Virus record (IMG/VR): IMGVR_UViG_2687453563_000006
Span: 1-42,570 of that record
DNA: 42,570 bases
Direction: 5' to 3' (one strand)
Origin: a virus
Taxonomy: Duplodnaviria; Heunggongvirae; Uroviricota; Caudoviricetes
Below the pieces are notes generated by a model that was given only the letters and a program-made list of their open reading frames with translations, had not been told where the DNA came from and ran no database searches. Shown here piece after piece: positions 976 to 4,099 of the stretch (the first letter of the stretch is position 1; every line of letters starts with the position of its first letter). Made by a program: the position numbers and the translations under genes.

Positions 976-987
976 GGCGGTAGCGTA
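976..987 (+). promoter_or_regulatory. ops-like element (GGCGGTAGCGTA) within a JUMPstart-like sequence; putative RfaH recruitment site
   Basis: 11/12 match to the ops consensus GGCGGTAGCGTG as I recall it, preceded by CCAAGG, 44 bp upstream of the GT2 start codon. Confidence 0.55.
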
Positions 988-1030
988 GTATTTTACACAT
1001 AAGCAAAAAATTAATATATAAGCAAGTCAA

Positions 1031-1876
1031 ATGGAAAAGATATTAACGATAGTACGACATAAACCAGGTAGGTTCCGTTTTTTATTAAGAGCATTACATT
1101 CTGTTTATAACCAAACATTCAAGGAAGTAAAAGTAGCAATATATTGCATGGGTGCTGAACAGGATCTCTCTAAAGATGAGTATTCGTATATTAACACAAT
1201 CCAGGAAAAATATAACCTTAGTCTAATACCGTTCAATCAAGATGTATCAGAAATAATTAAAAAAAGTGATTGTGAATATATATGCTTTTTAGATGATGAC
1301 GATACCTGGGCTCCAGAGTATCTATCTCGCATTTCAAGTACGCTTACAGCGACACGTCTTAAATACCCGTCAATCAATGCCATAGCATGCCACAGTAATA
1401 AAGTGGTAGAGGTTGCGGAGAGAAATAGAATAATTATTAACACAACATACCCATGGAATCATTACTTAGCAGTTGGCCCGCTTAGTTTTGATGTAATTCA
1501 TTACAAGAATAGCCTTCCAATTTCATCATGTTTTTTTGTTAAGAACTCAATATTTAATATTATAAATAAACATAACTTTTCTTCGCCATCTTTCTTTTGG
1601 CCCTTCTTAATTGATTATTTATCACAAAATGATCTTTGGATTCTTCCAGAACCTTTAGCATTCTATCATTTTAGAGAAAGTACCGATTTCAAGTACGGCA
1701 ATTTCACAGAGATTAACAGAGAAGAATGTGAGATTGATTATAGATTAATGATTAACAATATGATGAGAGATAGCAAAAACTCTACGCTATTAAACACACT
1801 ACTATCAAACCTAACTAATAGCAATATGGTATATAAACTATCCAACATTGAAAACAAATTAAATGAAAGAAAATAA
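1031..1876 (+). CDS. Family 2-like glycosyltransferase, soluble, 281 aa
   Basis: Acidic DDDD motif (FLDDDDTWAP) typical of GT-A DXD; about 30% GC; no hydrophobic C-terminus. Confidence 0.6.
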   Translation: MEKILTIVRHKPGRFRFLLRALHSVYNQTFKEVKVAIYCMGAEQDLSKDEYSYINTIQEKYNLSLIPFNQDVSEIIKKSDCEYICFLDDDDTWAPEYLSRISSTLTATRLKYPSINAIACHSNKVVEVAERNRIIINTTYPWNHYLAVGPLSFDVIHYKNSLPISSCFFVKNSIFNIINKHNFSSPSFFWPFLIDYLSQNDLWILPEPLAFYHFRESTDFKYGNFTEINREECEIDYRLMINNMMRDSKNSTLLNTLLSNLTNSNMVYKLSNIENKLNERK

Positions 1877-3821
1877 AATGAATATAGAAAAATATGACAC
1901 GGTAAGCTTTGATATATTTGACACATTAGTTAGCAGGAGAATATATCGCCCAGCAGATCTTTTCTCACTAATGCAAATTGAAATAGCCAATAATTCTAAT
2001 ATTTTATTATCTGGCCATGAAGAAATAATAGATAACTTCGCTGAAATGAGGGTCCAGGCCGAAGTTTCAGCGAGAGCTAAACGAGTCAATAAATTCGGAG
2101 GTGAACCAGAAGTTACTATTTTTGAAATATATGATGAAATTAAAGAGTTAAACGTTGGCATCTCAAAAGAAATTATCAACCAACTTATTCAACTGGAAAT
2201 CAGCACTGAAAAAGCAGTATTATATAAAAATAATTCAGGATATAAACTATTTCAGGCAGCAGTAAAAAATGGTTCGAAAATAATTATAATAAGCGACATG
2301 TATTTCCCAACTAGTATTTTAAAGGAATTGTTAATTTCATGCGGCTATAATGTTGATAACATCCCCATATACTCATCAGGAGAAATGCGCGCATCAAAAA
2401 ATAGCGGGGAATTATATACTCTTATAAAAGAACGTGAGAAACCTCGTCAAAATTCTTGGCTACATGTTGGAGATAATCCTCGTTCTGATATAAGTAATGC
2501 TAAAAAACATGGAATCCATACAATTCAAGCGGACTGGTCTGAATACGAGCATGGCACATCTTTTCATTGGAGAGCAAAAGATGTTGTTGGCGAATCATTA
2601 TATAAAGCTTTATCACTTAAACAAACCTCATCATTTTACACAAAAGATCCATTAACTGAGATTGGTTTTAAAGTATTTGGGCCTTTACTTTTAGGCTATA
2701 TATCATGGATGTCAAACCAGTTAAAAGTCCATAAAATTGATAAAGCTCTTTTCCTTGCTCGTGACGCACACTTAATTTACAAAATTTATAACAAATACTT
2801 TTCAGACGATCAGATAGAAAGCGAATATGTGTATATTTCTCGTGCCTCTTCTTATATGATAGGTATGACAGACTGGCCAATGCATAGAATATGGCATCTT
2901 TTTGGCGGTAAAAATAAAAAGAGTCTAAAGAAAATTCTTTCTATAGCTGGATTAGACGCCAAAAAATATATTTCAGATATACACAACGTTGGTTTTCCCA
3001 ACGAGGAATATATACCTAAACAAGGTGATGAACATAAAGTTCACTGGCTAATAAATAAACTATTTTCTAATATCTTATTAAAAAACACTCAAAATAGAAA
3101 TGAGTATTCTGGTTATTTTAAAAAAGCTTGTGGTGAACATAAAAATATTGCATTGATAGATGTTGGCTGGATGGGGAATATACAATCCGTTTTCGCTCGC
3201 TCACTTAGCGATGGCTGGGCTACTAAGAATATACACGGATTTTATTTGGCAACATTTCATGGTGCAAATGATAACCGCTCAATATACAATAAAATGTTTG
3301 GTTGGTTAGCGAACTACGGTATACCTCAAGAAAAATGTGATCTTTTCTTTGCTGGTGGCATTGAACTGATGGAGTTCGCTATGGCTGACAACACAGGCTC
3401 CACAATAGGTTATAAAAAGACTGCTGACGGCATTATCCCCGTAAGAGAAAAAAACAGTGATTCTGAGGTTAGCTATTTAAATAAAGCACAGCGACTTCAG
3501 TCAGGAATTATTGCTTTTTTCGAATATTTACATCCTTTATTAAATAAAGAAAATATTGATGAGTTAAACAGTACAACACTGTCTGAGCCATTCTTTCAAT
3601 TAGTCTCTAATCCAACAACCTACCAAATTGAGGCATTGTCGTCACTCACTCATTCAGAATCGGTTGGAGGTAACGCGGAAAGGATTATGCTGGCAAAAAA
3701 ACTACCTTTAAAAGAAAGGCTGTTCCCCGGTAAAATTTACGCATCAGAATTAGAGACCAGTTACTGGAAAGAGGGCTTTAAAAGATTAAACAGAAAGAAA
3801 TTTTGGGCAAAATACAACTAA
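1863..3821 (+). CDS. HAD-superfamily hydrolase domain fused to about 400 aa C-terminal domain of unknown function (652 aa)
   Basis: HAD motif I FDIFDTLV, motif II ISDM, motif IV GDNPRSD in the N-terminal 230 aa; overlaps GT2 stop by 14 nt (alternative start 1878); AT-rich. Confidence 0.6.
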   Translation: MKENKMNIEKYDTVSFDIFDTLVSRRIYRPADLFSLMQIEIANNSNILLSGHEEIIDNFAEMRVQAEVSARAKRVNKFGGEPEVTIFEIYDEIKELNVGISKEIINQLIQLEISTEKAVLYKNNSGYKLFQAAVKNGSKIIIISDMYFPTSILKELLISCGYNVDNIPIYSSGEMRASKNSGELYTLIKEREKPRQNSWLHVGDNPRSDISNAKKHGIHTIQADWSEYEHGTSFHWRAKDVVGESLYKALSLKQTSSFYTKDPLTEIGFKVFGPLLLGYISWMSNQLKVHKIDKALFLARDAHLIYKIYNKYFSDDQIESEYVYISRASSYMIGMTDWPMHRIWHLFGGKNKKSLKKILSIAGLDAKKYISDIHNVGFPNEEYIPKQGDEHKVHWLINKLFSNILLKNTQNRNEYSGYFKKACGEHKNIALIDVGWMGNIQSVFARSLSDGWATKNIHGFYLATFHGANDNRSIYNKMFGWLANYGIPQEKCDLFFAGGIELMEFAMADNTGSTIGYKKTADGIIPVREKNSDSEVSYLNKAQRLQSGIIAFFEYLHPLLNKENIDELNSTTLSEPFFQLVSNPTTYQIEALSSLTHSESVGGNAERIMLAKKLPLKERLFPGKIYASELETSYWKEGFKRLNRKKFWAKYN

Positions 3822-4063
3822 TCTAAATCCATTATCTTTAAGAAGATTGATAATACTATCGGTTGTGTGTCGATAGCATCAATCTGCTTAAAAGCAATAT
3901 CAATCCCATGGCCGGTAACTCTTGTATACGGTTACCGGACAAAACATACAGCTCACCAGTCAACAACTGGACAGCCGCTAAGCCAAAGAGATTGAACTCA
4001 CCTCACCGGGGGTATAGACTTGCCTTGATTCACAACAAATTGATTTCTCGAAAGAGATTTTTC

Positions 4064-4099
4064 TCCCTCCCGGTTCCCGACCGTGAGGGATTTTTTTTT
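4064..4099 (+). terminator. Intrinsic terminator downstream of the GT2/HAD operon
   Basis: tccctcccgg...ccgtgaggga stem followed by a T9 run. Confidence 0.6.

Follow-up and report, generated by a model that had tools for sequence, protein, structure and literature searches.

The stretch of DNA analyzed here (the window) comprises positions 1 to 42,570 of the IMG/VR virus record IMGVR_UViG_2687453563_000006 and matches the reverse complement of positions 3,952,182 to 3,994,751 of the Escherichia coli YD786 chromosome at 100% identity. Near its left end lies a two-gene cassette, preceded by a JUMPstart element and set within a prophage, whose products resemble the ribofuranose (Ribf) polymer synthase of the Salmonella T1 antigen locus. 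The first open reading frame, ORF1 (1031 to 1876, plus strand; 281 amino acids), is an ortholog of STM0725, and ORF2 (1878 to 3821, plus strand) is an ortholog of STM0726 and encodes 647 amino acids, or 652 if translation begins at the ATG at 1863. RefSeq uses both ORF2 starts (1863 and 1878), in different genomes; we consider 1878 more likely, since the orthologs begin 2 to 3 nt past the upstream stop codon. The frames overlap by 14 nt with the earlier start and are separated by a 1-nt gap with the later one, and are tightly coupled both ways. The GC content of the cassette is 0.32 to 0.35, versus 0.52 for the phage. An earlier note on this DNA had described an AT-rich operon with overlapping genes; the composition and the coupling hold, but the overlap depends on the start chosen and the 1-nt gap is the likelier arrangement.

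Profile searches with ORF2 gave only weak HAD matches (NCBIfam HAD-IA, E = 4.4e-7). Using phmmer, ORF2 matched PDB entry 7SHG, a "Ribofuranosyl transferase" (E = 1.2e-13, amino acids 4 to 602), and the CrpP-CriT part of the Haemophilus influenzae capsule polymerase Bcs3 (E = 3.8e-16). A 649-amino acid protein (P0002) is 70% identical to ORF2 across 648 residues. The contig that encodes P0002 has the order recombinase, glf, GT2, GT4, wzm, wzt, a GlfT2-like gene, a 277-amino acid GT2-like gene, the 649-amino acid gene, nei and gltA; it is the Salmonella T1-antigen locus, and P0002 is therefore STM0726 and the product of the preceding gene STM0725. Two modules can be delineated in ORF2: a HAD-type phosphoribose 5-phosphatase (PRP) module with an FDIFDT motif (1893 to 2528, plus strand), and a glycan phosphoribosyltransferase (gPRT) module dependent on phosphoribosyl pyrophosphate (PRPP; 2640 to 3818, plus strand), which aligns with 7SHG and the CriT part of Bcs3. 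Asp17 and Asp20 (652-amino acid numbering) are invariant in our alignment (A1) and Asp17 aligns with the catalytic Asp14 of STM0726, for which a D14A mutation has been described (PMC11294581). Arg300-Asp301 and the motif D433-x-G-W-x-G-N-x-Q441 are likewise invariant in A1 and align to active-site loops 1 and 3 of CriT, as defined in PMC10299916. ORF2 thus combines a HAD module bearing the catalytic Asp with gPRT homology and the loop motifs of PRP-gPRT enzymes. In such dual-domain enzymes the N-terminal HAD-type phosphatase strips the 5-phosphate (PMC11294581, PMC10299916) and, from its 70% identity to STM0726, we infer that ORF2 takes Ribf-5-phosphate from PRPP, attaches it to a glycan and afterward removes the phosphate. 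The protein, which had been presented as a HAD-domain fusion with 400 unassigned C-terminal residues, is instead a dual-domain ribofuranosyltransferase by its matches to STM0726, 7SHG and Bcs3, and its C-terminal part is the gPRT module; the RefSeq names "HAD family hydrolase" and "glycosyl transferase" are corrected in the same way.

ORF1 matches the Pfam GT2 family (E = 7.8e-6, above the gathering score), carries a DXD-type motif (DDDD, amino acids 88 to 91) and aligns with STM0725 along its full length at 54% identity. No catalysis has been assigned to STM0725, although it possesses the GT-A fold and a DXD motif; it is required for polymerization and forms a heterocomplex with STM0726, and its clade lacks the candidate catalytic-base Asp (PMC11294581). 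In an alignment of ORF1 with 14 pair-linked homologs, the STM0725 clade, including ORF1, has PSFF-WPF where a second clade has PVLGDWDF, the position of the catalytic base being assigned from this alignment rather than from a structure. The second-clade helper sequences were drawn from a GTDB scan with alignment A1, which served this purpose only and in which the matches listed were all at most 35% identical, with no Salmonella or E. coli among them. ORF1 therefore shares with STM0725-type helpers both the gene position, adjoining an STM0726 ortholog, and membership of the clade that lacks this Asp, and it is most likely a non-catalytic partner rather than a glycosyltransferase, a correction to its RefSeq name "glycosyltransferase family A protein". 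With PRPP as donor, STM0726 alone forms β-Ribf-(1→5)-Galf (Galf, galactofuranose) and β-Ribf-(1→2)-Ribf linkages (Kelly et al. 2024, PMC11294581), and it was the first PRP-gPRT enzyme known to add more than one Ribf (PMC11294581). Judged by homology, ORF1 and ORF2 very probably constitute a Ribf synthase pair of the STM0725/STM0726 type.

In YD786 the gene order is dusA, integrase, a dinI-like gene interrupted by the insertion sequence IS1 (dinI'::IS1), the cassette, a tail-fiber assembly gene, tail, head, lysis and early genes, and a partial dusA. This partial copy (41088 to 41194; attR) is 82% identical over 107 nt to the 5' end of the dusA gene beside the integrase, adjoins the yjbL-side host genes and is annotated by RefSeq as a partial tRNA-dihydrouridine synthase. 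The phage structural genes share 97% nucleotide identity with those of the Shigella serotype-converting phages SfII, SfI, SfIV and SfV, and the genes from 4466 on (tail-fiber assembly, tail fiber, baseplate) lie on the minus strand. The cassette thus occupies the slot between the integrase and the tail-fiber genes of an SfV-like myovirus prophage, inside a dusA-integrated prophage of the SfII/SfV family, and its earlier placement outside a prophage integrated at thrW is refuted by the dusA gene and integrase on one side and the dusA' repeat on the other. The attachment-site core that the earlier note had seen beside the cassette does exist: 47 nt (4185 to 4231, minus strand) are identical to the attP core of SfII, which is the 3' end of thrW (the reverse complement of its last 46 to 47 nt). 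It is a fossil and not an active junction in YD786, as it is identical over 47 nt yet marks no junction here, the prophage being bounded by dusA sequences; ARAGORN found no complete tRNA in the window. SfII itself has only one thrW core, which is located between its gtrA and int genes. Part of the SfII attP arm is likewise retained in the dusA-integrated prophage (4397 to 4442). In the related prophage of strain I3, two thrW cores (L006 2892-2938 and 6208-6239) flank gtrABC, which suggests that earlier tandem integration or att-site capture shifted conversion cassettes among phages.

In the near-identical I3 prophage, the slot of the cassette is occupied by gtrA, gtrB and a gtrC-type gene that ISKpn26 disrupts. 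Positions 3978 to 4600 of the window are 99.4% identical to I3 (L006 6001-6622), and the first part of this segment (3978 to 4051, plus strand) is the last 74 nt of the gtrC-type ORF that follows gtrA-gtrB-gtrC'::ISKpn26 in I3. An intrinsic terminator lies within the same shared segment (4064 to 4099, plus strand) and consists of a hairpin (4064 to 4090) followed by nine T residues; it was not picked up by a simple scanner, but the 66-nt stretch from 4040 to 4105 folds with a free energy of -20.8 kcal/mol (z = -2.9), in agreement with the strong terminator first noticed at the end of the operon. Because I3 has gtr genes in this slot and the window keeps the gtrC end and the terminator, the Ribf cassette must have replaced gtrA, gtrB and most of gtrC, and the terminator, derived from the gtr cluster, would now end the cassette transcript. 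The suggestion that a different conversion module had been exchanged at the gtr position is thereby supported, as is the statement that this is not a gtrABC cluster: no ORFs for GtrA, GtrB or a membrane GtrC lie between IS1 and the tail-fiber assembly gene, and Pfam finds GtrA and GtrB in the I3 slot but not in that of the window. Hydrophobic segments are absent from both cassette proteins (Kyte-Doolittle maxima over 19 residues, 0.93 and 1.42), and the absence of membrane helices claimed for ORF1 holds by this measure. A perfect 8-bp inverted repeat (CCGGTAAC...GTTACCGG, 3911 to 3939) sits in the cassette-specific 3' untranslated stretch, 90 nt past the ORF2 stop, and has no T-run.

Upstream of ORF1 lies a 36-nt JUMPstart-like element (952 to 987, plus strand) that ends in the operon polarity suppressor (ops) sequence GGCGGTAGCGTA (976 to 987), 43 nt before the ORF1 ATG (1031). 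The latter matches 11 of the 12 positions of ops (GGCGGTAGCGTG), with A in place of G at position 12. RfaH contacts ops bases 4 to 7 and requires the C3:G8 pair (PMC5995543). Bases 1 to 11 of ops (GGCGGTAGCGT, 976 to 986) are present on the coding strand, with the RfaH-contacting G4 to A7 and the C3:G8 pair intact. The 8-mer core GGCGGTAG occurs four times in the window versus 0.75 expected and is weak evidence alone. The other three copies, at 8108-8115 (plus strand), 11028-11035 (minus strand) and 32990-32997 (minus strand), are all within phage genes; the one in the tape-measure gene is the only one on a coding strand, and none has JUMPstart context. By contrast, the 19-mer JUMPstart sequence AGCCAGGGGCGGTAGCGTG, allowing up to three mismatches, has a single match in the window versus 0.01 expected, and AGCCAAGGGCGGTAGCGTA, the 3' half of JUMPstart with two mismatches, is unique in the window. 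When 5426 complete E. coli genomes were searched with the leader by sensitive blastn, the short intergenic matches included the JUMPstart of the E. coli O8 cluster (TTTGGTTGCGATAGCCAATGGCGGTAGCGTA, 78 bp upstream of manC), which is identical at 30 of 31 positions to 957-987 of the window and carries the same A at ops position 12. Over the core, an O149 rfb JUMPstart and the ops of the T1 operon in Salmonella align as well. Given the rarity of the 19-mer and the 30/31 match to O8, we interpret the element as a real JUMPstart rather than a chance match, evidently of the subtype that heads ABC-transporter-dependent polysaccharide clusters. A near-consensus ops upstream of the operon, as originally reported, is therefore present with a match that extends beyond chance.

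The left boundary of the cassette is formed by IS1 (97 to 864, minus strand; identified by sequence and the RefSeq transposase) in every E. coli copy. IS1 cuts the start of a dinI-like gene (62 to 96; first 12 codons, MRIEICIAKEKM) that reads toward the cassette and is preceded by two LexA boxes (3 to 18 and 31 to 46). The junction between IS1 and the cassette is common to all eight genomes that carry the cassette, and the DNA beyond IS1 varies between them. No direct repeat or target-site duplication is visible on the flanks of the IS1 copy in the window, a pattern that favors rearrangement through IS1 over simple insertion. The leader (865 to 1030) is 166 bp long, AT-rich, and contains the ops, with a gap of only 111 bp (865 to 975) between IS1 and ops. 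The SOS-regulated (LexA-controlled) dinI' promoter is directed toward the cassette, and read-through from it across IS1 in YD786 is possible but speculative.

Eight of the 5426 complete E. coli genomes carry the cassette, and in seven it is intact, with at least 99.7% nucleotide identity and all catalytic motifs kept. It is integrated at dusA in YD786, at yecD/yecE in WCHEC050613, PK8277 and ET846, and beside yodB in MIN9 (those in W444, PI12 and PK8217 are not among the annotated sites), and the neighboring tail-fiber genes vary between hosts. ET846 (L120 3788-8328) is the exception in which ORF1 is split, by an IS1-flanked insert that contains a gene for a 388-amino acid phosphoethanolamine transferase and an IS5 pseudogene. 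A blastn search of 72,556 PLSDB plasmids did not detect the cassette, and a tblastn search of 50,697 GenBank phage records did not yield a full-length ORF2 homolog, giving one HAD-domain match only; the evidence for carriage by phages is thus the prophage context together with the IMG/VR viral contigs L087 to L089. These are two identical copies of the cassette and a 9.5-kb contig (L089) with baseplate genes 54 to 66% identical to those of the window and, in the same slot by the tail-fiber genes, a pair at 52%/62% identity but with no ops. The divergent pair in the same slot points to a long-standing association with this phage type. Elsewhere the pair stands alone in Rosenbergiella, and in two enterobacterial contigs (L125 and L126/127) it immediately follows gnd as the last part of wzm-wzt-wbbM-glf-wbbN-wbbO clusters. 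Serratia marcescens O16, which makes a Ribf homopolymer, also has such a pair (PMC11294581). On a 62-kb IMG/VR viral contig (L098 10001-13027), a homolog of ORF2 (25% identity) is followed by an ORF1-like protein with a GDWDF motif, which indicates that phage-borne Ribf-transferase pairs extend beyond the enterobacterial SfV family.

Candidate genes for the acceptor glycan and its export were found elsewhere in the same genome. A search of the 5426 E. coli genomes with the Salmonella T1 genes STM0720 to STM0723 matched 55 genomes. The matching region of YD786 (L130 9000-17400; chromosome 634,000-643,000) is an IS-rich island with the order JUMPstart (TTTGGTTGCGATAGCCAATGGCGGTAGCGTG), wzm, wzt, wbbM (DUF4422 plus GT8), glf, wbbN-like, wbbO-like and one more GT2 gene. 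The pair-carrying clusters of L125 and L126/127 are collinear with this island, with 48 to 79% amino acid identity, and the island is by these features a D-galactan-I cluster of the Klebsiella type. The JUMPstart in the window closely resembles that heading this island. By megablast of the 6.6-kb cluster, the island is present in 55 of the 5426 genomes (∼1%), on plasmids in six of these. It occurs alongside ordinary Wzx/Wzy O-antigen clusters, and island strains may make a second O-polysaccharide. Of the seven genomes whose cassette is intact, six have the island (YD786, WCHEC050613, W444, PI12, PK8277 and PK8217), and it is missing from ET846, with its broken cassette. Strain SMS-3-5 is an example of an island carrier that lacks the cassette. 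This co-occurrence has a hypergeometric P of 5.7e-12, a value that is uncorrected for phylogeny and overstated, as some hosts are related, and it spans at least two integration sites (dusA and yecE) and several tail-fiber contexts. A common WecA-WbbN-WbbO primer underlies T1 and the galactans of Klebsiella (PMC11294581). We also considered a single host O antigen as the target, which is ruled out by WCHEC050613 (O149) and MIN9 (O176), both Wzx/Wzy types. A role of the galactan as phage receptor was considered as well, but no inference is possible from the tail-fiber genes, which are mosaic, differ among the cassette hosts and have e14-type counterparts at ∼92% identity in thousands of genomes.

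The earlier note's picture of an ops-headed two-gene surface-glycan module at the gtr position is borne out by a pair orthologous to the T1 Ribf synthase genes, a real JUMPstart and the gtr slot. We propose that this module acts in lysogenic conversion. At the cytoplasmic face of the membrane, the gPRT module of ORF2 would transfer ribofuranose-5-phosphate from PRPP to a glycan acceptor and the N-terminal HAD-type module would then remove the 5-phosphate, with ORF1, a GT-A fold lacking the catalytic base, binding ORF2 and rendering polymerization efficient. The acceptor would most likely be the Galf-terminated, undecaprenyl-diphosphate-linked D-galactan-I-type chain made by the separate mobile island in the same genome. 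The Galf terminus would be extended with a β-1,2-ribofuranan before the chain is exported by the Wzm/Wzt ABC transporter of the island and ligated to lipid A-core. The surface antigen of a lysogen would then comprise two domains, galactan and ribofuranan, as in Salmonella T1 or S. marcescens O16. Transcription would pass a JUMPstart/ops of the island's own type, where RfaH probably loads, coupling both loci. We give this full mechanism, in which the cassette extends the galactan of the island with a ribofuranose polymer under coupled RfaH control, a probability of about 0.6. A broader reading is more tentative and falls somewhat short of an even chance: a phage of the SfII/SfV family would have swapped periplasmic Gtr genes for a cytoplasmic pair that extends an island- or plasmid-encoded galactan I, the antigen arising from island, prophage and RfaH together.

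Several observations weigh against the proposed mechanism. In MIN9 (O176:H45) the cassette is intact although the galactan island is missing, and the six co-occurring genomes are not phylogenetically independent, five of them being placed at yecE. In vitro, STM0726 used a Galf polymer as acceptor, at its terminal, (1→3)-linked Galf, whereas the putative acceptor here is galactan I. The leader has A at position 12 in place of the G12 required for the U11 pause; on the other hand, a G12C substitution removed the U11 pause while RfaH recruitment in vitro was retained (PMC5995543). No sigma-70 promoter scored above the scanner threshold in the 111 bp between IS1 and ops, and expression may rely on read-through, or a native promoter may have been lost. 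Finally, no ops was found within 400 bp upstream of the orthologous pairs in L004, L089, L123, L125 and L126/127, a comparison that ended short of the heads of the L125 and L126 clusters, both loci being cut at wzm. A coincidental ops match, absent from orthologous loci, had been foreseen as a possible objection: chance is excluded by the extended match, but the element is indeed absent immediately upstream of orthologous pairs, which speaks against its conservation. Ops elements do head the Salmonella T1 operon (as the bare 12 nt) and the E. coli galactan island (as a full JUMPstart of the window type), and RfaH control of the cassette by this element is therefore still plausible. The T1 locus has a perfect ops (GGCGGTAGCGTG, L003 2173-2184) between STM0718 and glf/STM0719, ∼113 bp before the first T1 biosynthesis gene and downstream of the invertible promoter and STM0717-0718. 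Neither "RfaH" nor "JUMPstart" is mentioned in the T1 paper (PMC11294581), and RfaH may be an unrecognized layer of T1 regulation.

The pair might instead act on another acceptor, adding one or a few ribofuranose residues to a Wzx/Wzy O-unit, enterobacterial common antigen or the lipopolysaccharide (LPS) core. This would account for MIN9, which keeps the intact cassette (99.7% nucleotide identity) without the island, and for cassette hosts that differ in their Wzx/Wzy O antigens (O176 in MIN9, O149 in WCHEC050613), and specificity could have shifted, as 30% of ORF2 residues differ from STM0726. However, O149 and O176 are not among the Ribf-containing serogroups in a review of E. coli O antigens, an STM0725-type helper goes with poly-Ribf synthesis, the pair is physically linked to galactan-I clusters elsewhere, and the island is strongly enriched among the cassette hosts; we consider another acceptor unlikely. 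A reading of the cassette as silent or decaying cargo is similarly improbable; it would be a piece of a polysaccharide locus caught by IS1-mediated rearrangement, promoterless and without phenotype. IS1 abuts the leader in all copies with neither a visible target-site duplication nor a clear promoter, several host prophages are degraded (those of PK8277 and MIN9, for example), one copy is disrupted (ET846) and only 8 of 5426 genomes carry the cassette. Against this, both ORFs are intact in seven genomes with their catalytic motifs, in prophages with differing tail-fiber genes and at different chromosomal sites; a distant phage has a pair of 52 to 62% identity in this slot, a sign of selection as phage cargo, and inert DNA should show no such co-occurrence with the island. 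The version given in the earlier note, with the GT2 protein as an RfaH-controlled glycosyltransferase and the HAD protein supplying or processing a sugar-phosphate precursor, draws on the Pfam GT2 and HAD matches and the DXD-type motif of ORF1, but is very hard to sustain, because ORF1 is an ortholog of the non-catalytic helper STM0725, its closest characterized relative, which has no assigned transferase activity, and lacks the catalytic-base Asp, and because the C-terminal domain is the transferase in every characterized relative of ORF2.

The closest parallel to the proposed extension of galactan I by ORF1 and ORF2 is Salmonella T1 (PMC11294581). T1 and the cassette share the same two adjacent genes in the same order, an ops in the transcribed leader, the conserved catalytic Asp of the PRP module with the gPRT motifs, and a helper without the catalytic base. 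In T1, the pair forms the last two genes of an eight-gene chromosomal operon with an invertible promoter, the other genes being glf, wbbN-like, wbbO-like, wzm, wzt and a GlfT2-like polymerase, whereas the cassette stands alone in a prophage behind its own JUMPstart. T1 uses the GlfT2-like Galf polymerase, whereas the presumed acceptor and export genes for the cassette are on a separate island with WbbM (galactan I). Other PRP-gPRT enzymes (from Thermobacillus composti, PDB 7SHG; the Klebsiella prototype; and CrpP-CriT of Bcs3) have the same two modules and motifs, with PRPP as the probable shared donor, but are of low identity to ORF2; not all are accompanied by a helper, and Bcs3 adds a ribitol-phosphate transferase fusion.

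Shigella and E. coli phage serotype conversion is taught as Gtr glucosylation or O-acetylation after export. The cassette shares with the gtrABC clusters of SfII, SfV, SfI, SfIV and P22 the phage family, the slot between the tail-fiber genes and integrase, the convergent orientation to the tail-fiber assembly gene and a presumed change of the lysogen surface glycan. It differs in that gtrABC glucosylates in the periplasm from undecaprenyl phosphate-glucose, whereas the putative chemistry of the cassette is cytoplasmic, PRPP-dependent, prior to export and free of membrane proteins, and its presumed target is an ABC-transporter-dependent glycan. In Klebsiella pneumoniae O1, galactan I receives a galactan II cap through WbbY, whose locus is unlinked. 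K. pneumoniae O1 and S. marcescens O16 resemble the proposed arrangement in that a second polymer is placed on a galactan-I-type chain by genes outside the core cluster. Their extension genes are chromosomal, whereas the cassette is phage-borne, and in E. coli the galactan cluster is on an island or plasmid in a host that already has a Wzx/Wzy O antigen. Compared with operons under JUMPstart/ops-RfaH control, the cassette has the ops core on the coding strand of its leader and near-identical counterparts in the O8 and island JUMPstarts, but the RfaH-dependent operons in the literature consulted are long, whereas this is a 2.8-kb two-gene unit with A at position 12 and IS1 111 bp upstream.

The enzymology is thus known, the proteins being clear members of a characterized family; what is new is a stand-alone pair in the gtr slot of an SfII/SfV-type phage, directly behind a JUMPstart and associated with a separately mobile galactan island. 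In the literature searched we found no earlier description of such a phage-borne mode of conversion, the nearest being a one-line mention of a phage hit in the T1 paper, which reported 121 tBLASTn hits (PMC11294581). If the proposed mechanism is correct, a phage family that carries gtr genes can also bring in a cytoplasmic, PRPP-dependent polymerase by which a host glycan gains an entire polymer domain, and lysogenic conversion would act at the chain-extension step of an ABC-transporter pathway. Some E. coli would then display a T1-like or O16-like antigen that is missed by O-genotyping based on wzx/wzy or wzm/wzt at the rfb locus. The cassette also offers an experimental system for the role of a non-catalytic GT-A helper, in YD786 or together with the island in K-12, and, as a two-gene unit headed by JUMPstart, a convenient setting in which to test RfaH dependence. 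The accessory galactan-I island is flagged here in ∼1% of complete E. coli genomes.

Two further loci came to light in these comparisons. In the O176 cluster of MIN9 (L117 17029-20611), an IS1, an ISAs1 pseudogene and a transposase fragment lie between galF and the first glycosyltransferase gene, and these insertions may cut the cluster off from its promoter and JUMPstart. In E. coli strain 74-2 (L129 2440-5038), a JUMPstart of the same subtype as that in the window heads a locus of GT4 and ABC-transporter genes, which is flanked by IS5 copies, adjoins a pertactin-like autotransporter gene and appears to be a further accessory ABC-dependent glycan locus.

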